Positions 16,730-60,391 of a DNA stretch of 64,000 bases are shown here, in pieces. Below the pieces are notes generated by a model that saw nothing but the letters and a program-made list of their open reading frames with translations, was not told the origin of the DNA and searched no databases. This DNA comes from Octopus sinensis. Lineage: Eukaryota. A program made the translations under genes and the position numbers. The number at the start of each line of letters is the position of its first letter. Position 1 is the first letter of the stretch. The DNA lies in assembly GCF_006345805.1 (NCBI RefSeq), contig NC_042997.1:199640001-199704000 (forward strand). The letters run 5' to 3'.

Positions 16730-16844
16730 ATACTTTTACAAGAAGTGGGGTGATAGTGACTTCGAAGTTTCAGCCAACTAGCTTTCGTGAGACCAGTCTG
16801 ATGAAACATTGAAATCCCTGTCACCTCTCTTCTTGTAAAAGTAT
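16730..16844. mobile_element. Mini fold-back element with two degenerate hammerhead ribozymes
   Basis: Arms ATACTTTTACAAGAAG.. / ..CTTCTTGTAAAAGTAT; minus strand reads TGGT CTCACGA A AGCT AGTT GGCT GAAAC TTCGAA GTC ACTA; second copy at 18989-19098. Confidence 0.75.
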
Positions 16845-16857
16845 AATATATATACAT

Positions 16858-17710
16858 AGGCTCAAGTATGGCTGAGTGGTGAGAAGTTTACTTCCCAACC
16901 ACATGGTTCTGGGTTCAGTTCCATTGCATGGCACCTTGGGCAAGTGGCTTCTACTATGGCCTTGGGCCAACCAAAGCTTTGTGAGTGGATTTGATAGACT
17001 GGAAACTGAAAGAAGTCTACATATATGTATCATCATCATTATTTAATGTCTGCTTTCCATGCTGGCATATGTTGGACCGTTTGACTGAGGACTGGCAAGC
17101 CAGAAGGCTGCATCAGGCACCAGTCTGATCTGGGAAGATTTCTACAGCTGGATGCCCTTCCTAACACCAACCGCTCTAAGAGTGTAGTAGGTGCTTATTA
17201 CGTGCCACCAGCATGGGACCCAGTCAGACAGCACTGGCATCAACCACGCTCAAATGGTGCTTTTTACATGCCACCAGTATGGGTACCAGCCTGGCAGCAC
17301 TATCATCAGTCACAACAATGATTTCACTAGACTCAACAGGTTTTCTCAAGCACAGTATATCTCCAAAGGTCTCAGTCGCTTGTCATTGCCTCTGTGAGGC
17401 CCAATATTCAGTGGTCATGCTTCACCACCTTATCCCATATATATATTACACACATGTATATATATGTACATATATGAGTGTGTGTGAATGTATCTTTATG
17501 TCTGTATTTGTCCCCCCCACCACCACCACTGCTGCTTGAAAACCAGGGTTGGTATGTTTACATTCCTGTAACTTAGTGGTTCAGTAAAAGAGACTAATAG
17601 AATAAGTACCAAGCTTAAAAAGAAATAAGTCCTGGGTCAACTTATTCAACTAAAATTGTTCCAGGTGGCGCCCTGGCATGGATGCAGTCTAATGAATGAA
17701 ACAAGTGAAG
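16858..17710 (+). mobile_element. SINE family B with a nested family C copy (17030-17435, minus) in its microsatellite
   Basis: Head 16858-17025 and tail 17480-17710 separated by family C sequence. Confidence 0.8.
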
Positions 17711-17963
17711 GATATTCTCTCTCTCTCTCTCTCTAAGGCACACACATACATACACACATTTGGGTACATACTCTTTTACTCGTTTCAGTCATTTGACTGC
17801 GGCCATGCTGGAGCACCGCCTTTAGTCGAGCAAATCGACCCCGGGACTTATTCTTTGTAAGCCCAGTACTTATTCTATCGGTCTCTTTTGCTGAACCGCT
17901 AAGTGACGGGGACGTAAACACACCAGCATCGGTTGTCAAGTAATGCTAGGGTGACAAACGCAG

Positions 17964-17994
<31 letters not shown>

Positions 17995-18052
17995 ACATTA
18001 TTGGTGAATTGAAGAAATGGAGCTGAACGCAGATTGAACAGAAATCGTTTTA

Positions 18053-18141
18053 TTTCATTCTACACGTGTTTCGAAAGGCACAAATTACCAAAATCCGATT
18101 GAATAATGGGACCATATTGTGTCTTTCTCTTCAGGAAGAAA
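18053..18141 (-). ncRNA. Type I hammerhead ribozyme, intact core
   Basis: Minus strand: TTTCTTC-CTGAAGA-GAAAGACACAA..TTGTGCCTTTC-GAAA-C-ACGT-G-TA-GAATGAAA; stems I, II and III pair; GUA triplet; predicted cut between 18061 and 18060. Confidence 0.85.
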
Positions 18142-18311
18142 AAGGAAATCCGTTGGAAAAACAAAAACAGAACAGAGGCAGAGCAAAAAACAAATCGAAC
18201 TGTGCTCCTAAGAGCCCATGGCGAAACTCGCCATGGGCTCTTAGGAGCACAGTTCGATTTGTTTTTTGCTCTGCCTCTGTTCTGTTTTTGTTTTTCCAAC
18301 GGATTTCCTTT

Positions 18312-18399
18312 TTTCTTCCTGAAGAGAAAGACACAATATGGTCCCATTATTCAATCGGATTTTGGTAATTGTGCCTTTCAAAACACGTGTAGAATGAAA
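18312..18399 (+). ncRNA. Hammerhead ribozyme copy with G12->A core mutation (predicted inactive)
   Basis: CTGAAGA at 18319-18325; GAAA replaced by AAAA at 18380-18383; AATAAA immediately downstream. Confidence 0.75.
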
Positions 18400-18608
18400 T
18401 AAAACGATTTCTGTTCAATCTGCGTTCAGCTCCATTTCTTCAATTCACCAATAATGTTTTAATTTCAATTATCCGCACCAACGCACGGTTGCAACGCCAG
18501 ATGGTTGTACCTCCAACCGTGCTGTTCACTGCTGTGATTTTTGCTACTAAGGTATCGGTTAAACTTTTGATTAATCTACTACAAGATTATTCATCTTTCT
18601 ATTTCACA

Positions 18609-18613
<5 letters not shown>

Positions 18614-18660
<47 letters not shown>

Positions 18661-18666
18661 TATATA
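18614..18666. repeat. (TA)n microsatellite
   Basis: Seen directly. Confidence 0.95.
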
Positions 18667-18988
18667 CGACAGGCTTCTTTCAGTTTCCGTTTACCAAATC
18701 CACTCACAAGGCATTGGTCGGCCCGGGGCTATAGTAGAAGACACTTGCCCAAGATGCCACGCAGTGGGACTGAACCCGGAACCATGTGGTTGGTTAACAA
18801 GCTACTTACCACACAGAAATTACAAAATTAAGTAGTACATTTTCCAAACATACAGTTGTGAGTTCAGTCCCACTGTGTGACACTTTATGGAAGCTCTTTC
18901 CCCTATAGCCCTGAACCAATCAATGACTTGTGAGAGAATATGGTAGACATTAACTGAAAGAAACCTGGTGTGTGTGTGTGGGTGTATT

Positions 18989-19098
18989 ATACTTTTACAA
19001 GAGGGATAACAGTAACTTCAAAGTTTTAGTCTGCTATTTTTCATTAGACAGTATGAAAGAGGCTAGCAGGCCAAAACACTAAAGTCACTGTCACCCTT
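18989..19098. mobile_element. Second, more decayed copy of the mini fold-back HHR element
   Basis: ATACTTTTACAAGAGGGATAACAGTAACTTCAAAGTTT..AAACACTAAAGTCACTGTCACCC aligns to 16730-16844. Confidence 0.65.
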
Positions 19099-19551
19099 CA
19101 TCATCAACATCATAATTTAATGTTGATCTTCTATGCATGCATGGGTAGAATGGTTGACAGGAGCTGGCCAGGAAGACAATCTACTCAAGGCTACTGTGTC
19201 TGTTTTTGCAGGGATTTTATAGCTGGATGCCCTTCCTAACACCAACCACTCAGCAGAGAGGACTGAATAATTTTTTTTTATGTGGCACTAGCACAGGTGA
19301 AGTTTTGGCAAGATTTTTACGGCTGGATGTCCTTCCAGATGTCAACAAAGTTGGTTACCTAGTCAGAAAAAAGCAAGAGGAGAGAGAGAATGGCCAAAGG
19401 GAAAGAGAGAGAAAGTAGGAACCTTTCTTATAAATGTATAATAAATATGAACTCTACAAAAAACATATTGAATATTCCTTCAGTTTAATATTACATTGCT
19501 CCTATCATGTAATTCGACATATATATAAACAGAACACAAATGGGGTTTAAA

Positions 19552-19634
19552 ATTCACAACAGCTGTTTCAGTAGTATTTTATTGGTACATTCTTAGATTC
19601 AATCATGGCATAAATCTGCCATCATCAAGTAAAT
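19552..19634 (-). ncRNA. Degenerate solo hammerhead ribozyme
   Basis: Minus strand: ATTTAC-TTGATGA-TGGCAG..CTACT-GAAAC-AGCT-GTT-GTGAAT; 6-bp stem I; C3->T. Confidence 0.55.
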
Positions 19635-20593
19635 ATTAAACACACAAACAGGTATGGTAGAAACAGAAGATGACCAGTGCACCACTACCTTAGTGAAACA
19701 AGCATACTTTATTTATATATATATATAAACGAAAGTATGTATGAGTATATAAATGTATATGAGTAAGTATGCATGTGGAGATGTGTGTTTGTGAGACTGC
19801 TTACAAAAGAACTATGTAGAGCTACAAGTATAGACCGTTTGCAGCTCACCTACAAATGGTAAAGTCATCATTTGCAGATGTAGTGCAACTGGTGAAATTT
19901 GTCAATATTTTTTGTCAACAAAATCACCTACAATCACTTCACCACTCTTGTAGGTATGAGCTGGCAACAGAAAATGCTTCCAGCCAAAAATATTTCGCAT
20001 CAATACTTACTTCTACCTGAGACATATTAGCATGGAAAACAGATGCTAAAGAAAATAAGCAAAATATAAGTGTGTGTATTGTCATCATCATCATTTAGTA
20101 TCTGTTTCCCATGCTGCCATGGGTTGTATACCTATAATAATAGCAATATAAATGTAAGTCAATTTCTCCATTCATGTTTTACATCATATAGTGAGGAAGG
20201 AAGAGAAAGTATAAAAGAGAGACACAGGGTTAACATTAAGACATGCAGGATGAATGCACTACATAGGCTTAGTGACAGGCAATGAGTAAAGAAACACACA
20301 CAGTAAGAGAGAAAGAAGCATAGTCTGAAGAAAGAAAGGAGGAGTAGGAGTAAATGGCAGTAGTTATAGGAAGAGTTAGACAAATGAGAGGTTTGTTTTA
20401 CTTAATTGATTCTAAGGTAATTTAGTATTCATTTCATCATTTTGCATAAGTACAAAGAAATTTGATGGAAGCTAAATAGTAATTGTTGTACGGGTGCCAT
20501 ATTTTCTGACATTATTCAGGTTTAGGGGTCAAAAGTATACTTCAAAAATTACATGACATATGACAGGTAACATTCTAGTCTACACACACACAG

Positions 20594-20626
<33 letters not shown>

Positions 20627-20769
20627 TATTTTTAAAACTTTTTACAGTTATAAGACTGAAAGATTTTAGACAAACAAATTGACCCTAGGAACTTTTTTTT
20701 ATAAGACCCTTGCTCACGGTGTGGCTGAACCCAAAAATGTGGTTGGGAAGCAAGCTTCTTAACACACCG

Positions 20770-20818
<49 letters not shown>

Positions 20819-21689
20819 ATGATATATATATATATATAGTAACAAATGTTATGGCCATATGTTTAATACAAATGTTTTTAGTTCAGTGTGAAAATAAACG
20901 CTGGCTTCTTTGCAACCAGAGCAAAGGAGCAAATCAATAAATAATCAATTGCTTTTAACTTTCATTAAAGTCATCACCAGAATTCATTTGAAAGAGAGAA
21001 GAGAAATACTGCAAAAAAGAGATACTGAAAATTAATGATCAAATTTTTCTAAATGGCGCTACATATGGGCTACAACTAAACATCTCTGACTAAGGCAGAC
21101 CATGTAGCCCTCAGTCAAGTCTTATTGCATGGCCTAAGAATGAAGCAGAACCATGTACGCACAAAATATATTCAGTCCAGCCAGCCTTATGAGTGTGTGT
21201 GTGTGTGTGTTTATATACATCTGTGTTTGTGTGTGTTTTTGTGTAGCCTTGTCTTGACACCATGTGGTGGTTGCAAAAGAGGGTCACTGCTATACAAGTG
21301 ATATAGATTCCAGTTATCTGCAAAAAAGCATGTTTGGCTATGGGGAAATATTACCTTGCTTGGAAACAGGCATAGGTTGGTAACATGAAGAGCATCCAGC
21401 CATAAAAAATCTGCCTCAACAAACTCCATCTAACTAACAAAGTCATCATCATCATCATCATTTGATATCCATGTTCCATACTGGTACGGAGCTGAACAGT
21501 TTAACAAGATCCAGTGGGTCCAATGACTGCATTGTACTCTAGTATCTGGTTTAGCATGGTCTCCATGGATGGATGCCTTTTGTAATGCCAACCACTTTAC
21601 AGAATATATTGGATTCTTTTTTTTACATGAGACTAGCATTAGTGAGATTGCTATCTAACTTGAAGACTAAAATCACCATCAACTAGGAG

Positions 21690-23380
21690 GGGAGGCAACT
21701 TTATGCTGGGAAAAGAGGGGTTAAATATGAGAAATGAAGCCAGAGTAGAACAGGGTTTTTCACTGTAGAGGAATTACATGGCTTAACACATTAAAGAAAA
21801 GAAGATGGGATCAACTGGGGTGGAGCTGGAAAGAGACAAATAGTGATAATCAGATATCAGGGAGAAACCTCAAGATATAGGTAAGAAGAAGTGAGTTGGG
21901 GCATGATAATGTGGAACATATGGTGAATGAGATGGTTGAAGATAAGGAATGGATGAGGGGGTAGTGAATATAATGAATAACAAGTGTTGAGGAATGATGA
22001 GTAGGCAAGATAGGTAAGAGAGATTGGGTAGGGTTGAGGAATAGAAGTAGTGACTGGTGGATAGGTGAAGCAGAATGACCAATGAAACATAAGGGTTGAG
22101 AGGAGGTAAGGGAGAGTAGGAAATGACTGACAGTGCAGGAAGAAAAAAAGAGACTTGAAGCGCAACAGAATTGTAATAATGATACAGCAGACAGGGGAAA
22201 GATAAAAAAGAGAGAGAGAGGATGGGAGTATGATGTGGTTGAGTAGGTTACAAAAGTTGGGAAGAAATGTATTATGATGGAGAAGGAGACATACTTTAAA
22301 GATTCAGGATGGTGAGCAATGTAAAACATGAGTAGAGAGTATGGTATCAACAATGAAGGATGGATGTCAAGTGAAATGATTCTGAGCAGTGAGAAAGATA
22401 AGTGATATCAAGGGAAAGTGGACAGAGTAGGCAGTTCCTCAAGCATTTAATTACAGTAGTAGAATACTTATTTCTTTACTACCCACAAGGGGCTAAACAC
22501 AAGGAGGACAAACAAGGACAGACAAACGGATTAAGCCGATTATATCGACCCCAATGCCTAACTGGTACTTATTTAATCGACCCCGAAAGGATGAAAGGCA
22601 AAGTCGACCTCCATGGAATTTGAACTCAGAATGTAATGGCAGACAATATACGGCTATGCATTTTGCCCGGCATGCTAACATTTCTGCCAGCTCATTGCCT
22701 TCCATTGCAGTAGTAGAATACTGTAATTAGAGAAATGATGGGTGATGAGGATTTCTTAAGGAGAAAATTGAGTGAGGGGCACAATGATGCATACATATAT
22801 TGTACTTCTAGAATATTAGATTTATTGAAACAGGGAGGTCTTCTCAAGAACTGCATAACGCCTGTCACCTCTGTTTTTTTATTATCTCTTCCATGAGGTC
22901 CAAGGTCCTGGGATCAGCCTTTACCACTTTATATCATGTATACAAGCTCCACCCCCATTAAGCAACTGGTACTTCTTCATACAGCTGTCATCATCATTAA
23001 ACATCAGATGCCCATGCAGAACAGCTTTCTCTTTTGCACACTACACACAATTCCTTTTATGGCCAGGTTTTCTTTCAATACATTTCTACTTGCACACACT
23101 TACATTGTACATCAAGTGGACCATGATATTTTAAGTTTTTTGCTCTCCTCTCAAATCTTTGCATTCAAGGTCCTTTTCTCATGTCTCACTACTATGCAAC
23201 AACACAGTATTAACAGAAGCCTCAAACTATCTGCCCTTCACTCTGAGAAAAAAGAAAGACCTTTGTTGCCATAGAAGTAGTAGTTCCCTAAACTTTTCCT
23301 AATTTGTTCTTAACTTGGCTACTTTACTTTCAAGTAACCACCTAGAATATCATCTCTTAATACTCTAGAAGTTATGTCTT
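21690..23380 (-). mobile_element. Decayed RTE-like LINE 3' end plus long pyrimidine-rich downstream segment
   Basis: 22930-23380 resembles 200-650; 21690-22790 is purine-rich on +, mirroring 40590-41050, which follows the + strand copy. Confidence 0.5.
22469..22707 (-). mobile_element. SINE family A with 15-bp TSD
   Basis: TSD CAGTAGTAGAATACT at 22454-22468 and 22708-22722. Confidence 0.92.
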
Positions 23381-23624
23381 GGGAAGGTCCACACAATTCC
23401 TCTGTGTGTGTGTGTGTGTGTGTGGGGGGGTGTTATAATTGGCATAATGACCTTCCCAAGATGCACCAAGATTTGTTTCAATGCACGAATTCACATCGAG
23501 AATCTTGCAAATCAAATACAAAATTTCCAGAAGTTCATTTTTCGTTTAACTCCACAAGACCAAACAGAATCTGAAGAAAAACCTGCAGTAAGTCCCTGGA
23601 GAGGTTTTAATAAAAATTATTGCC

Positions 23625-23800
23625 AGGGCATGGCTGTGTGATTAGGGAGCTTGCTTCCTAGCTACATGGTTTCGGGTTCAGTCCCACTGCGTGGCACTTT
23701 GGATAGGTGTCTTCCACTATAGCCTCAAGCCGACCGGAGCTTTGTGATTGAATATTCGGTAGGTGGAAGTTACTGCCGTGTGTGTATGTGTGCGTATAGC
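23625..23800 (+). mobile_element. SINE family B 5' half
   Basis: GGCATGGCTGTGTG..GGGTTCAGTCCCACTGCGTGGCAC. Confidence 0.8.
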
Positions 23801-23885
23801 TGCTCAGTGCCTCTCCAAAAGAGAGAGAGGGAATGTGACACATTAAAATTCACCAATTAGTGACTACTATTGTCAATGAAAGCAT

Positions 23886-23928
<43 letters not shown>

Positions 23929-24891
23929 GAAACATTGCTGTTAAATGTTAAAAATATCCAGGTTTCAACAGAACATTCACTCTTTAAACATTGACTTGTA
24001 CTATAAGCATTGTTCACTTATGCGCTGGTATCATTTTAAATCTTTGGCACAGATTTAAATAAACTTCTTTTAAAGGGTGACTTCTCTTCACACGTAATAT
24101 GTTGGATTGGTAAATAAATCAGACATACCAGCAAAAGTGTCATTCTTCTCGTTTGGTTTTGTTTAAAAAAACAAAACCACTAATAAATGTAAAAGAATTT
24201 CTTCATTTTATAGGTAATTATGCATCGATTTATTATTCAGTGAATGCAGAATACATTTGTCTTATTTGCAAATTTTGTTATGAATTTCCTTTGGTAAATA
24301 TGTTTGTGGAATATATTTTGTGTGTGCATAGATGTGCTTCATATATGTACTTATGTTGTTGTTTGTTTGTGTGTGTGCTTTAATTCTTGATTGTCTGTGT
24401 AAAAGCTAACCAAAGAAGGAGAAAGGAAAAGTAAACTTGAACATTGGCAGACACTAAGGAGCCTGTAGGTAGTAATCCTGGCATTAAAACTATCATAGTT
24501 CAACTGAGTACCAAGATACAGATAGCAAATTAAATGATTTCTTCTCTGACATAGCCACATTAAATAAGAATGATACAGTATGTATTTGCTGTAGAGAGCA
24601 AAAGCTAGTCTTTTGGGTAATATCATGAGACAGGGAAATACTCTGGCTACCAAAGTCTTAAGAGTTTAATGAAAACATTGTTTGTCTAGAAACAAACAAC
24701 AAACACAGTTTTAATCAGGAAGAGTCAAACTTCCTGAAACACAACAAGGATGGGGTTGATATTCATATTTAGATATTATACACAGACAAATATTTTGCTA
24801 CATAAACTCATAAATGTATACTCATAAATATATATAACATTCATAAACAGACACACATGTGCACACACATTACATACATACATACACACAC

Positions 24892-24892
<1 letters not shown>

Positions 24893-24949
<57 letters not shown>

Positions 24950-25060
24950 CGGGAAGCTTTATGAAAATAAACAAAAGACGAAGGCAGGTGGAAAACAAAC
25001 GAACAATTGTATTAGTATGGCGCTCAGGAAATATAAATAAAACAAGTCTTTAACGTTTCG

Positions 25061-25095
<35 letters not shown>

Positions 25096-25430: not shown

Positions 25431-25472
<42 letters not shown>

Positions 25473-25603: not shown

Positions 25604-25666
<63 letters not shown>

Positions 25667-30228: not shown

Positions 30229-30486
30229 TATAGAAGTAATAATATTAACTCTGCTAGCTGAGTGGTTGTACGATTCAAACTAGCTCTGACCATGCAAATC
30301 TTGTTTTCCAAGTTTGTCACATTGTCAATAGGTTTAGAAGTTGTGACAATATGAGAATGTTGCATGATCTCCAGCAATCTGTTATTATATATCATTGTTT
30401 AGCAACAGGCCAGCTCTGCTTGAGTAGACCTGTAATCAAAGACATTCAAGCCATGACCATCCTGTCTTCTCACATGTAGTTTATCT

Positions 30487-30855
30487 TTTATCTTTTACTT
30501 GTTCCAATCATTAGACTACAGCCATGCTGGAGCAGTCTTCAAAAATTTTTGGTGAATGAAACAACCCCAGTACTTATTTCTAGCAGTCTCTTTTACCAGA
30601 CTGCTAAGTTACAGAGACATAAACACACTAATATCAGTTGTCAAGCAGTGCTGGGGGACAAATGCAGATACAAAGACACATACATAGATATCTGATGGGC
30701 TTCTTTCAGTTTCTGTCTACCAAATCCACTCACAAGGCTTTGATTGTCTTGAGGCTCTAAAGTAGAAGACACTTGTTCAAGGTACCACATAGAGGGACTG
30801 AACTCAGAACCATGTGGTTGGGAAGCAAACTTCTTATCACACAGTCAGGCCTGAC
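30487..30855 (-). mobile_element. SINE family B
   Basis: Full head-to-tail reverse-complement match to other B copies. Confidence 0.85.
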
Positions 30856-31227
30856 ATACATTTTATTTATTTATTTATTATTATTTTTTTTTTTAGAATA
30901 AGATGTCATTTGAAAGCAACTTGGCTATCATTTCTAACAGTCAGACAATCACTGAGAGGGTCTCCCAAGTTTTTCTGTAGGCAAGGATGGCACCAAACAT
31001 ACTTATTCCTCTGCTTTGGTATGGATACAAGCACCATATTTCAGACTAATGGTGTTATTGATTCTGCAAGCTTTGAGTTTGTCTAGAATAAGTAAGCAGT
31101 GTTCTTATGTTTGTGCACAGTAATGTATTGGGGGTATGCTAGTCATTATTTGATATGGAAGGGTGACTGAACATATAATGGCAAAAGAGTGTGAGTTAAA
31201 AGTAAGTTCAAGGATTGTTGGTTGTAT

Positions 31228-31590
31228 AGGCGCAGGTATGGTTGTGTGATAAAAAATGTGCTCCTCAACCAGAGGATTCTGGGTTCAATTCCACAGTGTG
31301 GTACCATGAGCAAGTCCTGCTATAGTCTTGAGCTGACCAAAGCCTTGTGAGTGGATTTGGTAGACAGAAACTGAAAAAAGCCTATCATGCATGTGTGTGT
31401 GTGTCTGTGTGTCCCTCCCCAGTACCTGACAATTGGTGTTGGCAAGTTTACATTCCTGAAACTTAGCAGTTCAGCAAAAATGACAGATAGAATAAGTACT
31501 CGGGTCGAATCATTCAACTAAAATTCTACAAGGGAGTGCCCCAGCATGGCCACAGGCCAATGACTGAAGCAAGTAAAAGATAGAAGATAT
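31228..31590 (+). mobile_element. SINE family B
   Basis: GGCGCAGGTATGGTTGTGTG..CAGCATGGCCACAGGCCAATGACTGAAGCAAGTAAAAG. Confidence 0.85.
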
Positions 31591-32189
31591 AACTGCAGTG
31601 GTTGGTTGCATGAAGGAAAAAAATGTGCTTGGAGGGTAATTATTATTGATAGTTTGATGAGATGTGTTGGTGTGAGAGATAAACAATTAGAAAATAAATA
31701 GTCTGAATAAAGAGTTCAAAATACAGAAAGAAAGCAGCATAGCATGTTGATTTGTATGCATGAGGAATGTGAAGGAAATGATAATGAAACAAGATGGATA
31801 TAAGACAACTGAGAAAATAAAATTGTTAATCTAATCCAAGAAAGAAATTGATTACATTAAGTTCTGAAAGTTTTGCTAAAGTCAATTATCTTAATTATTT
31901 CATGAGTAACAGGGACATTTCTTTAAAGGTGGCATTCATAATAGAAAATAATGCTTTGCATGAGAAAAGAAGATTAAGTGGTTATCAAGTTGTAAGTTGT
32001 AATATTTTTCTTTAAGGAATTATGTTGAATATGTAAACAATAAGAGAATCATGTTCAGAGCTTGTTACAAAATGAAAATCTCTGGTTGCTGATATTTCAT
32101 TAACAGCTTTCTCCTCTGTTAATGAGCAATTACTTGAAATATAAGGAACTAATAAATTATTAACATCTCTTTCTACATTTGCCCTTGCC

Positions 32190-33357: not shown

Positions 33358-34440
33358 AGGCATACAGGATATGGAGGAGAGCTGGCATCTAGACATACAT
33401 CACACTGGCATGCAGGTGTATGGACATACTCTGATATCACATGAACAATAATAAAAGATGGTCCTGTGGCTAAAGCATACAAGATATGGAGGAGAGAGAG
33501 TTAATGTTAGCTTCTAGACCAGTCCAACATTTCAGTCATTAAACTAATGTATACATTCCTATGTATCCATGAACACTGCATACATGCATTGTACTGTGTA
33601 ACCTTTGACAATGAATATTCTTACTTTAAACTATGTTGATAACAAGAACTGTACTATAAAACAATGACTTTAACAATTCATACACAATTCTTAAAATAAC
33701 CTAAACTTTTATATAGACAAATTACAAAGAAATAAATTGCCTTTTCTGTTTAATACAAATTTAACTGCAACTTTCTGAAATTCACTTCTTATCCATGTTT
33801 TTCCTGCAGCAAGTTACAACTATATTGTAATGTCTGCAAAGATCACAGATACATCTTCCTCCAGACTAAAATAATAATAAAAATAATATCAGTAAAAAAC
33901 CTACTATTACATGAATTAAAAAATATAATTAGAGATAAATCAATGAGACTCAAATATAAATCAAAATGTAGTAAGGTTTCTTGCAGTAAATACAATTTTT
34001 GTAAAATTCTACCAAAGACAATTTTTGCTCCATGTGACTGTCTCATGTCTCTCTTCATTCAGCATGCCTATTTTATAAAGGTCAGTAATTGTAGAGCTTC
34101 AAACCAAACTCTGAAAAATTCATGACTTCCTTGGTAATGATACAGCAGAGGTTTTCCAGTCTTCTGCTGGTTGATTTAAAGTCTAGTCTGTGGATTACCA
34201 GCTCTTCTGAGCTTATCTTCAAGGGACAAAGTCTATTTGACCCTTAGGCAGGAAAACCAGTTCATGTGATATCAAAGCATGTCAAAGAGCCAGCTCTCCT
34301 TTCTTCCATAACTTGTATGCTTTAGCCACAGGAGCATCACTTATTATTGTTCATGTGATATCAAAGTATGTCCATACACCTGCATGCCAGCGATCCTCTA
34401 TATCCTGAATGCCTTAGCTACAAGCTCATTTTTCATTATT
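33358..34440. repeat. Inverted repeat pair (~140-180-bp arms with internal tandem subunits, ~760-bp spacer)
   Basis: CTGGCATGCAGGTGTATGGACATACTCTGATATCACATGAACAATAAT versus ATTATTGTTCATGTGATATCAAAGTATGTCCATACACCTGCATGCCAG. Confidence 0.85.
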
Positions 34441-41362: not shown

Positions 41363-41924
41363 GCATATTACACCATTGCTATTATGTTAAACTTTGTATG
41401 TTCAAATTTGGCCAAATGCATTTTTTGCTTGCAATAGCTGATTCTTTTGGTCAAACTATTGTACCTCCAGCTGCTTCAGATAAAATTTGTCAAAGTGTAG
41501 TATAACAGCTTAGCATATTTCAAAAGTATAGAAAGCACCACCAGTTTTGCAAAAAATATTTCTCACTGAAAATATCATACATGCATGTTGTTATGATTTT
41601 ATGTACAAAACAATGTATTATTGTTAAGCTGAAACCGTTGCTAATGTAAAAAGAAAGAGGATGGTGAAACTATTTCTTTATTTTCAGAAAAAGCAACATT
41701 TTGGACTTACGATACTTTTACGTAATAGCAAGAATACATGTGTGTGTGTGTATGTATATATATATATAAAAATATATATATCATTATCATCATCATCGTT
41801 TAACGTCCGTTTTCCAAGCTAGCATGGGTTTGACGGTTCGACTAGGGTCTGGGAAGCCAAGAGGCTGCTCCAGGCCCCAATCTGATCTGGAGGTGTTTCT
41901 ACAGCTGGATGCCCTTCCTAATGC

Positions 41925-42421
41925 TCCTGGACACATCACTCGTATAAAGAAGTTCATCAATTTTTCAGTGACAGTTCTCCAAAATCAGTTGATGCATTTT
42001 CATGATGTTTTCATTTGTTTAGAGGGTTGATGTTTGCCCTGAATGAGATTGGTCTTCAAGTGACAAGTGACCATTCCTAAAACATGAAAACCACTCATAA
42101 ACTTCTGCTTTGCTCATGGCAGCATCCTTGTAAGCTGTTTGAAGCATGGCAACTGTTTCAGCCACCATTTTCCCTAGCAGAAAACAAAATTTCATGGAAG
42201 CATGCTGTTCCTCTCTTTCAGCCATTGCAAAAATGGACAAACAGAGAAGAAGCATTGCAAAAAAAAAATGCACCACATGGCAGTATGCCTTTTCTCGACG
42301 ATGTTGGTTGGCAGACTGATGCCTGAAGATTGCATCAAGTGAATTCTAGTGGTGGAACCTGAACTATAGCATGCTTGTCCCACAGAGAATATTTACAGTT
42401 ACTTTTGGGTATCTCCTCAAA
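41925..42421 (-). mobile_element. mariner remnant (5' end and HTH domain)
   Basis: EQHASMKFCFLLGKMVAETVAMLQTAYKDAAMSKAEVYEWFSCFRNGHLSLEDQSHSG matches the mariner transposase N-terminal HTH pattern. Confidence 0.85.
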
Positions 42422-42774
42422 TACATACAGTACCATGCACATGTCTTCGGTCACTTTAAATTATTGTAAATTTCTACTGATTGCCAACTTATAAGTGGAG
42501 GTTTCTCATTACATTTTCTACAGATGAAACATTGGCCCCATCGAAGTCATTTCCATTTCTAATAATTATATTTTGTAGTAGAGGTAATTTTTATATATCT
42601 AATAATTATCCTCTGAATAATGGAATGTATCTATTAGTCCATTGAAATGCTGAATATTAATAACAACCTTCCTATGAAATACATTCTAAATTACAATTTT
42701 ACTATACAGTATCTAATTAATTTTCTCTCTTAACTATAGCTTTTAAATATTATAAGTAACTTTTATTTCTTCAT

Positions 42775-43033
42775 CAGCTCTGTCTGGCCCCGTGCCAGAG
42801 ACACGTAAAAGCACCATCTGTTCGTGGCCGTTTGCCAGCTCTGTCTGGCACCTGTGCGGGTGGCACGTAAAAAGCACCCACTACACTCATGGAGTGGTTG
42901 GCGTTAGGAAGGGCATCCAGCCGTAGAAACACTGCCAGATCTGACTGGGCCTGATGAAGCCTTCCAGCTTCACAGATCCCAGTTGAACCGTCCAACCCAT
43001 GCTAGCATGGAGAACGGATGATGATGATGATGA
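42775..43033 (+). mobile_element. Family C, young copy
   Basis: CpG-intact; GGCGTTAGGAAGGGCATCCAGCCGTAGAAAC; (GAT)n tail. Confidence 0.88.
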
Positions 43034-52426: not shown

Positions 52427-52560
52427 TCATATAAAAATTTACAAAACACTATTAAATTTAGCAATCAATTCATTCATTAATGTTTTCAAACATTATATAG
52501 TTGCTGTTTCTGACCTGCTGTTTAGTTGCCATAATAACAGGGAAGTGTATTTGTTGTTAA
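52427..52560 (+). repeat. ~134-bp direct repeat, copy 1
   Basis: About 90% identical by eye to 55201-55334. Confidence 0.9.
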
Positions 52561-53229
52561 GTTTCATTAAGTTTATTGATTTTTAACACCCAAAAATCAA
52601 TTTTATACAAGTTTCATTTTATTGCATAGAAAATAGTTTTGGTGCAGTAAAACAAATAACTAAGAATTTGTTTTTATCTTTTAAATTTTTCTTAATTGTT
52701 GCAATTCGTGCACTTGTTTTAGCTATCCTAAATTGTTACAAATTCACAAAACTGTGTAAATTTATTTAATTCTCTTCCAATTTTTAGATCTGGTAGAGTT
52801 CAGGTGCCACTAACTTGTGATTTCTTACATTCAGGATCAATATCAATAAATAAATGAAAAGTCAATACCGCCAGTATACTGGGGTGCAATTGCAACCTGA
52901 GCACGTATGTAAGTACTATTCACTATAATAACTTATTGAAAAGGAAATATAAACAACGATTTTGGATATTGTGTATATAAGATAACTGCCAAGAGAGAAA
53001 AGAAAACTGATGTATGCAGAAAATTGTGAACCCTACAACTTGTAAAGAATTTGAAAGGTTTTAATTCTGTTGTCCAAAGTGGATGGAGTAGACAATTGTT
53101 TCCTTAATAGATGCAGTGAGTGTGTCCTTTTGTTATTCATGGAAACATAATTATCACATCTACAGTAGAGATTTCTTCTCTTTCTTCTTTTTATGCAGTT
53201 ACTGTCCATAGGGATAGTGCAGGTTCTAA

Positions 53230-53480
53230 GTTGTATGTGAATGACAACTAGAAAAGCATGAATAGTAGCATTATCTGTGTAGAAGTAAGCATTAAATAGG
53301 GGTTGATAGAAATCTGGTTATTTAATGTACAGGAGAAAGAGTAGGGGGCAGATAACTGAATCATAGGGTATACCAGACTTGATAGAAAGTACATCTGTAA
53401 AAGCCCCATCAGCACAATTTCTGTTGATGCTGACAAATAGATTCTGATCTGAGAGCCAAGAAACAAATGGAACCAATTGC
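53230..53480 (-). mobile_element. Old CR1/L2-like LINE RT fragment
   Basis: Minus translation DGAFTDVLSIKSGIPYDSVICPLLFLLYI resembles SGVPQGSVLGPLLFLLYIND. Confidence 0.65.
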
Positions 53481-54457
53481 TTCTCTGCAGTTCAGTATCA
53501 TAAAAAAGTTATACACACACAGAAATAATAACTTTAGTACAAAGTGCACAGAATAGCTGAAAGTTTCTGTATTATATAATAGTGATTGTCTTAACATCAA
53601 TTTTATCCAAGTGACAGAAAACACTTTTTAAATGATAAAATTCTGAAATAATTAGGAATATTTCAAGCTTTAGCTTGCTGTGTATTGATAAAATTTTGTC
53701 AAATGGGTTTTATACTTTCTTTAGCAGCCATTCATCACTTAATATATTGTGAAAGGTGTTATCATTCATTTTTGAATTCATAATCTGACTAACACAGAGT
53801 ATTTGATAAGTTACAGATTATTTACATCATTTCAGATTCATTACATTTATATTTATCTTTCACTTACCAGAGATAAGACTGACATTTTTTTTCTCTATGA
53901 CTGATAGCAAATTAATGCTTAACTATGGTGTTAATTGACCTTAATAATTTTCCAAGTTGATTAATTGAAAATTTAATTTTCTGCAAATACTTTTCATCAG
54001 CTGAGAAGATGAAGGAATTATGGCCAGAAGGCAAAAAAACACTTGCAATTGATATCAACCAAGTAGATTTCAAGCAAAGATGTATTGGAATAAATTTAAA
54101 CCAGATTGATAGAAATAAGACTTCTTTTACTTTCCAATATTTAAATAACATTCTAACATTTCTACTTTACAACTTCTGTTGCTTATTAGTATTTTTTCAA
54201 TTACTACATGAGCAAGAAGTTTGGGAGAAAATAGAAAAGTGAAGGTTTAGTTCAGAGATTTCTTTCGACATTTCTTTTAAAATTTAGTAACTGTGGTTGC
54301 AAAACAAAGATTGATTAATTCGGACAACTGATTGATAGTGATAAATTGAGATTAATTTGATTTCTGTTTTTACTAAACTTCTTTTTTCTCTCAGTCCAAG
54401 TGTAGCATACAATTCTGGAGAAGCTGATATGAAGACAGAAGTTATATCAGTTGAACA

Positions 54458-54471
54458 GTAGCCATGGTAAC
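54458..54471. promoter_or_regulatory. RFX X-box consensus match
   Basis: GTAGCCATGGTAAC fits GTNRCC-NN-RGYAAC; motif match only. Confidence 0.3.
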
Positions 54472-55200
54472 TGTGGTAGATAACTTGGTAATAGTAAAGT
54501 GCTTTTATAAATTAAAGTCTGAAAACATTGCTTCCTACTCCAAGATTTTGCAGCAAACAAAAAAAACAAAGGTTTACATTTTGCTCTGTCTATTTTTTTA
54601 AGGTATCAGCTTATGTAGTAAAAAACAAAATGTAATGTAGATAAATTGTTGCAAAGCAGAATTAATATATTTACTTGAGAAGTTGAATGACATGGAGCTT
54701 GAAGATAATGATTTACTATTCTGGTATGTATTTTGGAGAAGATGATGACTAAACTGAAAGAATACTAGGTTGCCAGCCAGGAGTTCAACAGTATGTGCCT
54801 TGCCAGTACCATTTTATGTTGTATATGTATTTAATAATACACGAAGGCCGATGGCTTGGTGGTTAATTGTGTTGGGCTCATGATCAAAAGTCATGGATTC
54901 AATTCCTGAACTGAGTGGCTTGTTGTGCCCTTGAGCAAAACACTTTATCCCACTTTGTTCCATCATCCTCCTAGTGCTGGTGCAACCCTCTCTCCCTCAT
55001 ATTCAGGATTTTCCTCTGGGTCAAGGGTGGCAAGAGTTGATATCATGTCTTTCACTGTTAGGACTAGATTTGTGGACAAGGTTATTATATTAATAATAGA
55101 GATGAGGTATTATAGAAACAGAAATGAACATAGATGTATAACATACTTTTAATTACTCTTCAACAAGGCATATACTACACTCATAACAAGGAATTTTTTG

Positions 55201-55334
55201 TCATATAAAAAATTTCAAAACACTATTAAATTTGGCAATCAATTCATTCATTAATGTACTCAGACATTATATAGTTGCTGTTTCTGATCCGTTGTTTAGT
55301 TACCATAATAACATGGAAGTGTATTTGTTGTTAA
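55201..55334 (+). repeat. ~134-bp direct repeat, copy 2
   Basis: Matches 52427-52560. Confidence 0.9.
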
Positions 55335-56609
55335 TGGTAGATGTAACAAACAATACTCATTTGCAAGTCACAGCTGTGGTTAATGACACATGACTATCAG
55401 AGCAAATGACTAAAAGTAAATTAGAAACATCAGGTGTGAATAATTTACTGCAGTGGATATATTGAAAAATTGACAACTATGAATGCTGAAATGGCCCTGT
55501 GGGTGAGGAAGTTCACTTTACAATAATGTTTGCACTTTAGGCAAATGTCTTCTATCATAAACTTAGGTCAATCAATACTCTGAGTAGAATTTGGTTGATG
55601 GAAACTGTGCAGAACCTTGCTGTGTGTATATATGTGTGCATGCATGTCCTATATTGATGTATTGTGGTGAGGATTATAATCATCAATGAGAAAACTGAAA
55701 CACTTCATTTATAAAATGAATGAAGTCCCTTGAGATATTGGTTCTCAACTGATTTACAGACACTCCAGTTTCACTGCTGCTTGATAGAAAAGTGTCAGAA
55801 AAGCAGTGCAACTAGTGTTTGACCAATTGGAAATCTTTACTAAATGATGCTGTTGTTCAAAAGTAGGTTATTAACTACATTATTATTAAGTGAAAGTGTT
55901 AATCATTGGTGTTGCCACTGGTCTTGACAGTAAGTCACTCGAATTAATCATTAGTTGGTGTTGTACGATAACTGACTCAATGATTTGACAGATTAACTAA
56001 GGAAGGAAGTAAGGATTTATGTTAGAGTGAAGTGATAGCATTTCTAATATACAAGAATGATTTCATCAATGATTTGTCTGCAAATTTAGACATGCTAAAG
56101 AAAACTGTCAAAAGATAAAGGAATTTTACTCCTAAAATAAATCAGATATTATTGAGGCACAGTTATGGTAGGTTTGGGGTTTAGTCCTACAGTGTGGCAT
56201 CGAGGGCAAATGTCTTCTACTATAGACCTTGGTCAAAGCCTGGTGAGTGAATTTAGCATGCAGAAACTGAAAAGAGCAGATTTTTTTGTATGTGTACATG
56301 TATGTGTGTTGGATTACATTTGCACTTTACAAAACTCACTGTGAGTGGTGGTGATGTTATAACTTCTCCTGTCAACAAATCAAGAATAAATAAGAGACCC
56401 CCTTACTTAGAAACAAGTAAGGATCAGTGACAGGAAGAGCATCTGGCTACAAAAACAATGCTTCAGTTGTACATACAACTAATCTATGCTAGCACAGTAA
56501 AAAATGGATGTAAAATGAACAACAGTTAATATAGTAAATTCATTTGGAGCTGTAAGAGAGAGAGAGAGAGAGAGATACTGGATTAATATTAAATTCCTTA
56601 TGTGGTCTG

Positions 56610-56860
56610 GCTCTCTATTGGTTATGACGACAAGTGTTCCAGTTGATTCAATCAACAGAACAACCAGCTTGTGAAATTGACATGCAAGTGGATGAGTACA
56701 CCCCCAGACATACATACCCTTACTGTATATCTCAGGGAATTTCAGTGTGACAAGGGGTGGCTCTTCTGAATTACAAGTACAACCCATTTTTGCCAGCTAA
56801 GCAGACTAGAGCAATGTGAAATAAAGTGACTTGCTCAGCATGCCACCAGGAATCAAACTC
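56610..56860 (-). mobile_element. Decayed family D-related SINE
   Basis: GGTTATGACGACAAGTGTTCCAGTTGATTCAATCAACAGAACA is the reverse complement of the 13700-13750 tail. Confidence 0.7.
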
Positions 56861-56931
56861 AATTAGTTAATTAATAAAATAAGGTTCTACTGTTTTAGTA
56901 GAATTGAATTGTTTTGAAAGAAAATAGTGAA

Positions 56932-57150
56932 GTAAAAATTCTTTCCTGGCATCCGAAAGACCTGACATTGGAACAGATTATAGAGGCTATACAAATACAG
57001 AAAGCAGACTTCCCCTCACTCAAACTCAATGAAGAATGGATGACTTAGCACAGTAATACAAAAATAACTACCATAGAGACATCACTCTAAAATCTACCCA
57101 TTGAGAAGGTTACAGATTTGGTGGTGGAAACTATGCTTGGCGAAATAAAA
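56932..57150 (+). mobile_element. Penelope-like element 3' remnant (GIY-YIG C-terminus, degenerate HHR, AATAAA)
   Basis: 56932-57048 translates VKILSWHPKDLTLEQIIEAIQIQKADFPSLKLNEEWMT*; then CCA-TTGAGAA..GAAAC..TGG and AATAAA. Confidence 0.55.
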
Positions 57151-57984
57151 ATATATAAACAAAACAATGAGTGAACATGTTTACAGGCCAAAATATAACA
57201 ATATTTAAACGTTACTACTTTTGAAGAGGCTGGTGGAAAATGAAGACTTCTAAGTATAAATTCAAAGAAAATGTGAAATAATTCTAGAGAAAAGTAAATA
57301 GGTTATTTATGAAATAGTTTGAAATTCTTTGCAAACAATTATATACTTCAACAAATTTTCACATTCATAGCTTAGATAAAACTTTTTATTGAACATTATC
57401 ATAGGTTTATGGAAAATAAATTATGTGATAACTAGGTGGATATATTTTTACTTGACTTTATTTCCATAATTTTCTTATTTGGTATTGGCAATTTAAAAAC
57501 TTGCATACTAAATAAATTTTCAGTGTGAAATAGTTTTGAAACCATCAGAAACTAAAAATAAAAAAAATAATAGTTAAAACAATACATATAGTTCAATGGA
57601 TTTTCGGATGTTTTTATAGAGACGTTCAAATATCTAGGGAACACTTGTATGAATATATTTCAATTTTATTTATATCACCTCTGTGTTATAAAAATATTTT
57701 GCCAAAATTTTGAAAACCAATATTTTACAGCAAATTGTTCAATGTAATGTTAAACAATATCAAATTAAAAGCAGAACCCATATTTTGATAGTCTTCCACG
57801 TAGATTAGGCTAATTAATTAATGTACATCATGTGAGTGTGTGTGAGAGTATGTGTGTGTACCTTTTAATGTTTATAATTTTGTTTTTATTCATAATTTAT
57901 TTGTTTAACTATTTGGTGGCTGTTCTACATTTTGTGTTGCATTTATATATTTTCTTTTAATATTTGGAGGAAATATTTGGTTGG

Positions 57985-58400
57985 TGTGACATAGCTTTGT
58001 ATAGAAGTTTGCTTTCACAGCCATGCAGTTTTGGTTTCAGTCATACTGAACGACACTTGAGACAAGTGTCTTCTGCTACAGTGTTGGGTTGACCAAAGCC
58101 TTGCAAGTTTGTTTGGTAGATGGAAACTGAAAGAAACCCTATATGTATATATTCTTTATTCATTTACTAGTTTCAGTTATTTGACTGTAGCCATGTTGGA
58201 GCACAACCTTGAAGTGTTTTAACTGAATAAATTGACCTCTGGACTTAATTCTTAAGCCTAGTACTTATTCTATTGGTCTCTTTTGCTGAACCGCTAAGTT
58301 ATCGGTACCTAAACACACCAACACCAGTTGTCAAGAGGTGACGGAGGGAGACAAGCAGAGACACAAAGACATGCATACGCACACATACACACACACACAT
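57985..58400. mobile_element. Family B head (+, 57985-58150) abutting a family B tail (-, 58155-58400)
   Basis: Motif matches to other B copies. Confidence 0.75.
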
Positions 58401-58414
58401 GCAAATGTAGAGAG

Positions 58415-60070
58415 AGAGAAACTACGGAGAGAAAGGATTCTAAAACCTTCTATGACGGCCTCAAGAAAGCGCATGGTCCTCAAGAGCACGGTGTTACTCC
58501 TATTTTTTCATCGAATAGAGACACTGCTGACGGACAAATATGACATCTTGAAACAATGGAAAGACCACTTTGGAGCCGTGTTGAACTCCACCTCAGTCAC
58601 TAATGATAACGTCATAACGGCTATTCCACAGCACACTGAAATATTGGAAATATCTCTGGAGGCAACCTTCCTGGAAGTGGTGAACCCCATTAAACAGATC
58701 TCCTCAGGTAAAGTGCCTGGCAGGGATACTGTCCTGCCTGAAATCTAAAAGCATGGTGGACAGAAGCTTTTCAAGAAATTGCATGACCTCTTCATAAATA
58801 TCTGGAGGGTAGGCTGTGTACCACAGTACTTTAAGGATGCCTCAATTCAACATCTTTATAAGAACAAAGGAAACAGAAGTGTCCATGATTAGGCAGCAAG
58901 CTGGCAGAATCGTTAGCACACCGGGCAAAATGCTTCACGGTATTTCGTCTGCCGCTACATTCTGAGTTCAAATTCCACCGAGGTCGACTTTGCCTTTCAT
59001 CCTTTCGGGGTTTATTAAATAAGTACCAGTTACACACTGGGGTTGATTTAATTGACTTAATCCGTTTGTCTGTCCTTGTTTGTCCTCTCTGTGTTTACCC
59101 CCTTGTGGGTAGTAAAGAAATAGGTATTTTGTCTGCCGTTACGTTCTGAGTTCAAATTCCACTGAGTTCGACTTTCATCCTTTCAGGGTCGATAAATTAA
59201 GTACCAGTTACACATTGGGGTCGATGTAATCAACTTAATCCCTTTGTCTGACCTTGTTTGTCCCCTCTATGTTTAGCTCCTTGTTGGCAATAATGAAATA
59301 AGAAGTGTCCATGATAATCATTGTGGGTTATCACTTCTGTCTTTTGCTTGTAAGATTCTTGCTCGACTCATTCTTGACAGGATCATCAAACATGTTGTAA
59401 ATGACATCTATCCAGAATCACAGCACAGATTTCGTTCTGGTTGTAGCACTATCAAGATGATCTTTTCTCTCTGTCAGGTCATTAAAGAGGTACAAGAGAA
59501 AAATCAAGAGTTGTTCAAGGTGTTTGTTGACCTTACTAAGGCCTTCAACACTTAACTGACAAGTATTTTGGAAAGTTCTGAAAAAGCTTGGTATACCTGA
59601 GAAGACGTTGAATGTTATTTCCTTTCATGAAGGAAGGAATCTTGTTGTCATGTCCAGCAGGAAAGTTTTGGCTTCCTTCAATGTTACAAATGGCACAAAG
59701 CAAGGTTGCGTTATGGCCACTGTATTTTTGCACTTTTTTTTTCAGTGGTGCTGAGGCATGCTTTTGGTGACATACAAAGTGGTGTCAAATTCCAGTTTCG
59801 AATAAGTAGTGGACTATTCAATCATCAGTGTTTCAAAACCAAAACATTGCTATTCACCAGTACCATTCGTGATCTGTTTTTTGCAGATACTGCATGAGTG
59901 ATGACCTCCTTAGAGGAAGCTCAAGGACTTCTAGACCAGTTTTTTTCTTGAATGTAAAGCCTCTGGTTTGACCATCGCCCTACTGCTAAGCAAATTCGAG
60001 GTGTCAATCAGAAGCCACCGGTTCACAATTTCCCTGACACTCCTATACAGGTTTAAAGGAAAAACCTGAA
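58415..60070 (+). mobile_element. RTE-clade (BovB-like) LINE RT region, pseudogenised
   Basis: LLTDKYDILKQWKDHFGAVLN..IKQISSGKVPGRD..PEI*KHGG..PQYFKDASIQHLYKNKGNRS/NHCGLSLLS..YPESQHRFRSG..FVDLTKAF..NGTKQGCV..IRDLFFAD. Confidence 0.92.
58890..59300 (+). mobile_element. Dimeric SINE family A insertion with 15-bp TSD
   Basis: AGAAGTGTCCATGAT at 58875-58889 and 59301-59315 encloses a full unit plus a 5'-truncated second unit from ~59123. Confidence 0.93.
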
Positions 60071-60071
60071 G

Positions 60072-60391
60072 TTTTCGTACAGAGATATAAAAATTCATGC
60101 AAATTCATGGTTGAATTAAATTAATTATATATCACTATACTCTTCAGTGCAAGAAGTATAAACAAAATTTTTATAAAGGACTTGAGAAAGGAAAAAGCAG
60201 AATAGGATCTAGGATACGTATTTATCCTTATGAGAAAAAGAGATGCGAGTCCAGTTAGGTATTAACTATAACGAGTTATAGTTAAATTTTGTTCATACTT
60301 CTTGCATTGAAGAGTACAGGGATATATAATTAATTTAATTCAACCATGAATTTGCATGATTTTATACCTCTGTATGAAACGATCATCTCCA
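60072..60391. mobile_element. Fold-back element with ~98-bp arms carrying two hammerhead ribozyme remnants
   Basis: Arms 60073-60170 and 60284-60379. Plus strand: TGCA-TTGAAGA-GTACAGGGATATA..TATACCTCTGTAT-GAAAC-GATC-ATC-TCCA. Minus arm keeps CTGAAGA..GTAC-GAAA. Confidence 0.8.

Follow-up and report, generated by a model that had tools for sequence, protein, structure and literature searches.

Four head-to-head inverted repeats in a 64-kb window

Inverted-repeat calling and alignment identified inverted repeats at all four places in the window, i.e., the whole 64-kb stretch of DNA analyzed here, at which a preliminary description had reported fold-back elements. The arms are divergent, with a hammerhead (HHR)-type motif on the minus strand in the left arm and on the plus strand in the right arm, and transitions predominate among the arm-to-arm differences. 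The proposed division into three mutually unrelated families was confirmed, with no cross-family match obtained with blastn or nhmmer. With the same programs, no further copies of families 1 to 3 were found within the window; no direct-repeat (head-to-tail) copies lie beside any of the four elements, and scanning gave no HHR match in the other long inverted repeats of the window (33405-34390, 41808-43016, and repeat pairs).

Family 1 is represented by copies 1a and 1b, which are 75% identical across 72 nt. The inverted repeat of 1a spans 16720-16854. Its left arm (16730..16791, minus strand) contains a type I minimal HHR with a palindromic helix III and one core substitution, the core reading CTCACGA; a 6-nt head-to-head junction (16792..16797) lies within the 5' strand of helix I; and the right arm (16798..16848, plus strand) retains an intact CTGATGA, carries no tail and, by alignment to 1b, lacks about 15 nt of helix II. 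A decayed optional 3' extension, the Penelope-like element (PLE) "tail" (16696..16729, minus strand), is present on the left side of 1a only and may extend to 16690 or beyond. The inverted repeat of 1b (18989-19100) consists of a tail-less left arm with a decayed HHR (18989..19047, minus strand), located 10 bp from a (TG)n run, a 5-nt junction (19048..19052), and a right arm (19053..19098, plus strand) with a decayed HHR whose helices I and II still pair and whose outer end has been replaced by another repeat; both arms have at least two core changes each. The 6- and 5-nt junctions coincide in position in the 1a-1b alignment once a deletion in 1a is allowed, although the arm-versus-arm alignment of 1a slightly favors a center with no deletion (score 56 versus 52). 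As the preliminary description had noted, the two family 1 copies share the left terminus and, in this alignment, the position of the center; the junction sequence of the family is not fixed.

Family 2 (17994-18458) has arms of approximately 231 bp around a 3-nt loop, differing by one CpG transition and two 1-nt indels. Its left end abuts a (TA)n run (17976..17993), the probable target, and its left arm (17994..18224, minus strand) holds the sole intact HHR core in the window (18134-18061), with a 55-nt helix II and a CACGTG helix III. The junction (18225..18227), which is the loop of a perfect hairpin, is separated by about 90 nt from the HHR cores downstream of it; in the right arm (18228..18458, plus strand), the CpG transition changed GAAA to AAAA in the HHR (18319-18391). 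Beyond the right arm, up to the next (TA)n run, 18459..18611 (plus strand) has no mirrored counterpart and may, judging from its sequence only, hold a tail. When family 2 was compared to Rfam miRNA models, its scores were below their gathering scores; identity as a microRNA hairpin was rejected, since these matches reflect hairpin shape only.

Family 3 (60073-60379) has arms of about 97 bp with 6 differences and about 113 bp unmirrored between them. Its left arm, an inverted partial copy (60072..60170, minus strand), retains CTGAAGA, a long helix II, and GAAA, at which it ends, without helix III or the cleavage site. This left copy adjoins a decayed LINE reverse-transcriptase fragment. The unmirrored spacer (60171..60261, plus strand) is the upstream part of the direct copy. 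A 24-bp hairpin (60262..60285; folding z of -4.5), resembling the palindromes of 18 and 38 bp located 5'-terminally in Adineta pseudo-LTRs (pLTRs) (PMC3846280), forms the inner start of the direct arm (60284..60395, plus strand, with a provisional right end), which contains a decayed HHR (60299-60395) with a TTGAAGA core, a long helix II, and a mismatched helix III (CGATCA).

Hammerhead motifs and sequence surroundings

The HHR signal in the window exceeds chance. It comprises one zero-mismatch core and three matches with a perfect palindromic helix III of at least 6 nt; the corresponding values for 60 Markov-shuffled windows were a mean of 0.03 and a total of 0. A relaxed scan gave three additional matches outside the palindromes, which is at chance level (shuffled mean of 1.4). 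An HHR had been proposed for every arm; recognizable remains do occur in the arms, but only one of the eight, the left arm of family 2, passed the strict scan. The terminal-repeat HHR, of the type I minimal form, is intact in this arm and survives as remnants in the other seven, where the motif is mutated, deleted, or truncated. In the window, no Rfam hammerhead family was found at the gathering score or among matches up to an E value of 10, and a covariance model built here yielded nothing significant (best E value of 0.33).

As the preliminary description had noted, three of the four elements adjoin dinucleotide runs: one end of each lies no more than 10 bp from such a run, compared to a background of 3.25% of positions (P of about 0.001). 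The TA run at 1a, however, is mostly its own decayed tail, and without it the association is reduced to two of four (P of about 0.02). Family 3 lies approximately 300 bp or more from any dinucleotide run. Around the four elements, no unique target duplication was found, only (TA)n. No PLE reverse transcriptase or GIY-YIG fragment was detected in the 59 open reading frames (ORFs) scanned among the 218 in the window, as expected for truncated copies, and no parent PLE ORF or parent element was found for family 1, 2, or 3.

Junctions of family 1 and of an analogous family

Family 1 is a dispersed repeat, with 207 and 264 contigs in two genomic runs and 9 records in run X16, which is only guessed to be RNA and whose contigs show no ends. 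Copy 1a was recovered in one piece in run X13, under another organism code (record 11; 6 substitutions, 3 gaps), and the family 1 terminal motif gave 0 matches in metagenome and viral contigs. Two classes of ends were observed. Loose ends before 16732 share one consensus in 13 (X1) and 19 (X13) contigs, with agreement of 0.62 and 0.58, and by eye this consensus resembles the left flank of 1a; the 19 and 23 contigs whose loose ends stop before 16730 show diverse sequences there (agreement of 0.45 to 0.46), and several other family 1 contigs align through to 16690. In the consensus of the loose ends, CTGAYGA is restored, along with an unpaired A and a helix II that is short and closed by G-C. 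This is the layout described for the PLE minimal HHR (PMC4209133), which likewise has an unpaired nucleotide 5' of helix II.

The fold-back junctions of family 1 cluster just 5' of the HHR core without one fixed sequence. Their lengths are 5, 6, and probably about 10 nt, with a possible class of about 10 nt that recurs, and two of the three junctions seen in single records resemble the 5-nt junction of the window. The majority sequence of the family 1 contigs fails directly after the 5' strand of helix I, and no fixed internal structure across copies was found. In simulations with 28 contigs, both diagnostic letters were lost in 0.2% of cases if half of the copies shared one in-register junction and in 2.6% if 40% did.

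The same head-to-head HHR architecture was found in unrelated AT-rich metagenome contigs, whose loci are analogues rather than homologues of the window families and were retrieved with a pattern that detects only centers of 2 to 14 nt. Among 93 such loci, a strict HHR core occurs in 43, of which 16 have it in both arms and the rest in one; the GC content of each of these 43 is ≤0.50, and none of the 31 loci with a GC content of >0.55 has a strict core. The largest cluster comprises 23 loci at 18 places with 15 different centers, 2 to 14 nt long. A tail of about 30 nt is on one arm only in 13 of the 13 places resolved, with sides assigned by hand, and most tails contain an ATG; the arm ends are uniform, at about 80 and 110 nt. 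In 10 of the 13 resolved places, the whole palindrome is enclosed by its own target duplication of 7 to 15 bp, with flank words of at least 7 nt shared in 10 of 13 places versus 7 of 156 cross-locus controls. Helix I covariation was evident, with 78.8% of cells paired in a selection of 20 of the 34 listed arms, a level reached in 0 of 500 shuffles. Two pairs of places have identical or near-identical arms but different centers (6 versus 12 nt for L019/L059 and 2 versus 13 nt for L062/L070), each place with a separate target duplication, and L001 and L079 have one center in common.

Relation to PLE insertions and alternative readings

Published work places the HHR in the PLE pLTR and shows that the main template is uncleaved RNA, that two internal sites of this RNA, which lie downstream of the HHR and bound the tail, serve as start points of reverse transcription, and that both target strands are cut and extended. 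In the published anatomy, an inverted 5' copy stands head-to-head, the junction carries a palindrome, and HHRs are paired on opposite strands; insertion units of endonuclease-positive (EN+) PLEs (Penelope/Poseidon, Neptune, and Nematis) consist of a pLTR, an adjacent inverted 5'-truncated copy, and a one-sided tail of 30 to 40 bp (PMC8557442; PMC3846280). The window elements share with these units the head-to-head inversion of an adjacent 5' copy, the junction palindrome, the tail at one end (optional in family 1, and seen in the analogous family), the AT-rich or microsatellite setting, and, in family 3, asymmetric arms. They differ in that the repeats enclose no ORF, that no unique target duplication was observed in the window, and that helix II is unusually long in families 2 and 3. 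A type I core, a short palindromic helix III, and opposite-strand pairs are also shared with PLE minimal or dimeric hammerheads; in Schistosoma mansoni, dual motifs on opposite strands about 100 to 700 bp apart were attributed to truncated PLEs (PMC4209133), whereas the family 1 cores are only 5 to 6 nt apart, closer than that range, and most window copies are decayed.

We consider it probable (about 75%) that each of the four palindromes is a very short insertion, truncated at its 5' end, from one of three unrelated PLE families, and that at every insertion the enzymes of the element wrote the pLTR twice, head-to-head. Since the anatomy described above matches that published for PLE insertions, the junction was most likely made anew each time. 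Reverse transcription from the sites bounding the tail would run for just about 65 to 230 nt. A second copy, without a tail and in the opposite direction, would then be made, either through snap-back of the cDNA or through priming on the other target strand. The data do not discriminate between these routes, and a comparison of arms within versus between metagenome loci favored neither snap-back nor two-template priming. Writing the terminal pseudo-LTR twice would leave the HHR motif once on each strand. Junctions of the family 1 type cluster a few nucleotides upstream of the HHR core, the probable start of the template RNA, and inserted copies would afterwards decay neutrally. Of the two explanations first offered for these elements, the data support the fold-back step in PLE-type reverse transcription, which has been published before (Arkhipova 2013, PMC3846280; Cervera and de la Pena 2014, PMC4209133; Craig 2021, PMC8557442).

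The other, then favored, was that the palindromes spread as such, and this was not supported. A palindrome that is itself mobile, either MITE-like or as an RNA-hairpin element copied whole from palindromic masters, could account for the terminus, the junction position, and one right-arm-only letter common to 1a and 1b, and for the recurrence of a similar 5-nt junction and possibly of a class of about 10 nt. We nevertheless regard it as very unlikely, because the majority sequence is lost after helix I, the junctions differ, and target duplications are separate in the analogues; the tail, moreover, is one-sided, the analogous family combines identical arms with different centers, and the HHR cores decay. 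Variable inversion points, named at the outset, together with mapping of all copies to termini of known autonomous PLEs, as evidence against spread in this form, were found in the analogous family and partly in family 1. MITEs and fold-back DNA transposons are short, palindromic, noncoding, and dispersed. The window elements are alike in these respects, but their one-sided tail and variable junction, together with the variable-length target duplications of the analogues, point to retrotransposition. Still less credible are inversions arising after insertion, by repair or replication fold-back in AT-rich DNA, or assembly artifacts. Family 2, an almost perfect 465-bp hairpin beside microsatellites, invites this explanation; against it, the arms stop at the element ends, 1a occurs whole in a run under another organism code, and the target duplications in analogous loci flank the entire palindrome.

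A variant of the PLE reading is that the template of family 1 was a mini-RNA of about 100 nt without an ORF, comprising the HHR and PLE start signals and mobilized by a PLE in trans, with the head-to-head arrangement still made at each insertion. The loose ends of family 1 show no common upstream sequence past helix I, the arms of the analogous family have uniform ends, and animal retrozymes are reported as nonautonomous PLE derivatives (bioRxiv 10.64898/2026.07.22.740005). Given a fixed RNA 5' end, however, the pLTR of an autonomous element would look identical, the two family 1 copies are not in tandem as retrozymes are, and the ATG in most analogous tails is also found in the pLTR-plus-tail of Adineta Pen2a; we therefore think such a template rather unlikely. 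Equally tentative is the broader idea that family 1 and its analogues in other eukaryotes form an unnamed class of ORF-less HHR mini-retroelements of about 100 nt, SINE-like parasites of PLEs. Their RNA would begin a few bases ahead of the ribozyme core, and they would insert as head-to-head micro-palindromes. If so, the cloud of junctions would map PLE RNA 5' ends genome-wide, and snap-back could be tested against two-strand priming.

Like the window elements, non-LTR (animal) retrozymes are noncoding and carry type I HHRs, and they are related to PLE pLTRs, as the window elements probably are. Retrozymes form head-to-tail tandems with same-strand HHRs (bioRxiv 10.64898/2026.07.22.740005), whereas the window elements are single head-to-head units. 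Head-to-tail same-strand units, expected of a retrozyme, are absent beside all four elements. The portions consulted of Kojima 2018 and of Arkhipova and Yushenova 2019 add nothing on palindromic PLE derivatives.

Under the preferred reading of truncated PLE insertions, the value of these elements is chiefly for annotation: a short palindrome bearing a ribozyme motif on both strands is a recognizable footprint of PLE insertion and is easily mistaken for a MITE or a microRNA hairpin. The formation of tandem and inverted PLE structures has been described as undefined (PMC8557442); micro-insertions that lack an ORF and show a tail, a target duplication, and a junction immediately upstream of the HHR offer a simple natural readout of the template RNA start and of second-arm synthesis, and the clustering of junctions is a modest, testable hint about the RNA 5' end. 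A read-through transcript is predicted to form a single long hairpin hiding the ribozyme; the units, if transcribed, would be long double-stranded RNA and not active ribozymes. When the HHR regions were folded in isolation as single strands, they were unremarkable except for that in the right arm of family 3 (z of -2.2).

Inverted hammerhead elements in the window

The window is animal DNA, AT-rich and dense in repeats, and its short repeats resemble octopus SINEs; between 26 and 70% of the words sampled from 16400-19400 were present in public runs of five organism codes. Inverted repeats had been claimed at four places in the preliminary description, and inverted-repeat searches of the window recovered all four: the two copies of family 1 (1a, 16720-16854, and 1b, 18989-19100), which are 75% alike across 72 nt, family 2 (17994-18458) and family 3 (60073-60379). 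Family 2 folds almost perfectly into a hairpin around a loop of 3 nt, and a single CpG transition plus two indels of 1 nt each are all that distinguishes its arms. Because about 113 bp of unmirrored DNA separates the arms of family 3 (about 97 bp, 6 differences), this element represents a partial copy in inverted orientation rather than a hairpin formed by fold-back. The adjacency to microsatellites also described earlier was seen by distance for three of the four elements (P of about 0.001) but for two of four without the tail belonging to 1a itself (P of about 0.02).

A strict scan of both strands of the window detected one intact type I hammerhead ribozyme motif (HHR), in the left arm of family 2. 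With one core mismatch allowed, six matches were obtained, namely both arms of family 2, the left arm of 1a and three elsewhere, compared to means of 1.4 and 0.03 matches at one and zero mismatches, respectively, in 60 trials with shuffled windows. All three in-element matches contain a perfect palindromic helix III of at least 6 nt, found in none of the 60 shuffled-window trials. By eye, the right arm of 1a is short of about 15 nt in helix II, each arm of 1b carries several core changes, and family 3 is altered in the core and helix III on the right and stops at GAAA on the left; an Rfam search of the window returned no hammerhead match. An HHR had been assigned to every arm, and while the architecture is real, only one of the eight arms looks intact.

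Family 1 copies and analogous palindromes

Of four runs aligned to 16690-16856 at 80% likeness, three contributed contigs (207, 264 and 9) and the fourth, of raw reads, contributed none, which makes family 1 a dispersed repeat; 1a was also recovered unbroken from a run of another organism code. Past 16770, the letters of other copies rebuild a core of regular form in which an unpaired A precedes a short helix II, the minimal-HHR layout of Penelope-like retroelements (PLEs) according to Cervera and de la Pena (PMC4209133). At 16754, in the helix I 3' strand, about two-thirds of the aligned depth carries C versus T in 1a, and the remaining third may mark a family-1 subfamily. The outer ends fell into two classes: the flanks before 16730 were diverse (19 and 23 contigs), and those before 16732 had an extension in common (13 and 19 contigs). 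The left flank of 1a is similar to this extension, unlike its right flank, and this is the one-sided PLE tail.

The family-1 consensus collapses directly past the helix I 5' strand. With a single in-register junction carried by half of 28 copies, a rough simulation lost both diagnostic letters in 0.2% of trials; with 30% of them carrying it, the figure rose to 13%. Among the rows listed (18 of 190 loose-end rows), three single records crossed the junction, two of them resembling the 5-nt junction of 1b and the third possibly a 10-nt palindromic one. A deletion in 1a that would bring the two family-1 junctions into line is favoured by the 1a-1b alignment, not by the 1a arm-to-arm score.

Metagenome contigs were searched for pairs of divergent cores with a spacing of 2-14 nt, a limit set by the pattern, giving 93 loci that serve as analogues of the window families and have at most a presumed link to an ORF. 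Strict HHR completion was obtained in at least one arm of 43 loci and in both arms of 16; GC was at most 0.50 in all 43, the 31 GC-rich loci contributing none. Covariation was seen in helix I, a part on which the pattern placed no condition, over 20 arms chosen from 34 listed; the window arms went undetected by a covariance model built on the metagenome arms. The 43 loci are head-to-head minimal-HHR micro-insertions in at least a dozen sequence clusters on AT-rich contigs, their DNA is probably eukaryotic, and they offer ready material for the study of PLE junctions and target duplications.

The largest cluster comprised 23 loci, reduced to 18 places by removal of 5 loci that duplicated a place already counted, and these showed 15 different centres of 2-14 nt, the only range the pattern allowed. 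In the 13 places where it could be assigned by hand, an extension of about 30 nt lay on one arm only, and an own 7- to 15-bp duplication flanked 10 of these 13 versus 7 of 156 cross-locus controls. Two loci with an identical arm (L019 and L059) have centres of 6 versus 12 nt, and two with arms 97% alike (L062 and L070) have centres of 2 versus 13 nt; L001 and L079 have one common centre. Tail, target duplication and a newly made junction thus occur together in these analogues, which is what separate PLE insertions would be expected to give.

Origin of the palindromes

We consider the palindromes to be remnants of head-to-head PLE insertions (probability of roughly 0.75), with families 2 and 3 placed by anatomy alone; the window elements are a real feature and fresh members of an already described kind. 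Inverted PLE structures are abundant, with palindromes at the junction and head-to-head as the commonest arrangement, target duplications measure 8-10 bp, and solo pseudo-LTRs (pLTRs) exist (Arkhipova 2013, PMC3846280), while dual minimal HHRs on opposite strands, about 100-700 bp apart, are probably related to truncated PLEs (Cervera 2014, PMC4209133). Retrozymes, in contrast, are arranged in tandem (Li 2026). O. vulgaris has 31 recently active Penelope-like families, and the accessible portion of that main text mentions neither ribozymes nor palindromes (Bonar 2026). In a largely open-access literature without Repbase, no listed title or opening abstract had HHR-bearing micro-palindromes, or a gathering of junctions at the HHR core, as its main subject.

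For a Poseidon PLE, Frangieh (2024) describes both strands as cut and extended at AT-rich DNA, reverse transcription as beginning inside the RNA at two sites bounding the genomic tail, the HHR as lying just upstream of those sites at the ORF start, and the template as mainly uncleaved RNA. A short reverse-transcription run from those start sites would produce an arm containing the HHR, and a second, tail-less arm would then be joined head-to-head via snap-back or other-strand priming; both arms would contain an HHR simply because synthesis, on its way from the start sites to its end, passes over it. That family-1-type junctions gather immediately 5' of the core would be best explained by RNA starting there, so that a shared centre would need no palindromic master, i.e., a pre-existing palindrome copied whole. 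In family 2, synthesis would have halted about 90 nt further upstream; the predicted transcript across it folds as one hairpin, which would hide the ribozyme. In family 3, the direct copy is longer and a 24-bp hairpin stands at the start of the mirrored part, placed as the hairpin or palindrome of Adineta pLTRs.

Spread as a palindromic unit, the second alternative of the preliminary description, is very improbable, given the loss of the family-1 consensus past helix I and the varying centres of the analogues. The question of fixed or variable inversion centres raised there was answered for the analogues, where they vary, and in part for family 1, in which the resemblance of two of three records to a 5-nt junction stands beside the lost consensus. 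That family 1 is instead an ORF-less mini-element appears unlikely, if less so than unit spread. Against our reading as PLE remnants, no parent ORF was found among the 59 of 218 window ORFs scanned, and no unique target duplication was found around the elements within the window; the negative result of the metagenome covariance model and the 1a arm-to-arm score also count against it.

Other repeats of the window

A decayed LINE reverse-transcriptase fragment on the plus strand (58395-60071; PF00078, E of 5e-8 at 59277-59552), which we take to be RTE-like by its motifs, is broken by another repeat near 58865-59300 and ends at the start of family 3, with no continuation seen to the right of that element. 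Within family 3, the loop of the long helix II (60330-60347) holds a 12-nt AT-rich word directly ahead of ATG; the word also precedes ATG in the tails of three metagenome loci (L001, L048 and L079) and may be an ORF-start mark or chance. An inverted pair of a common repeat (41808-43016; 82% over 117 bp) encloses a Mos1-transposase HTH fragment on the minus strand (42022-42345; PF17906, E of 3.6e-10), which is a mariner remnant. Inverted arms of 97 bp at 33405-34390, which are 92% identical, lie about 800 bp from each other and occur once in the window, had no match in the HHR scan and possibly represent a non-autonomous DNA transposon. A perfect 26-bp palindrome with a short TA run at its centre lies at 15962-15987. 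Abundant SINE-like repeats form inverted pairs at 30475-31597, 17535-17940, 18670-18967 and 15393-15756, a potential source of double-stranded RNA if transcribed.
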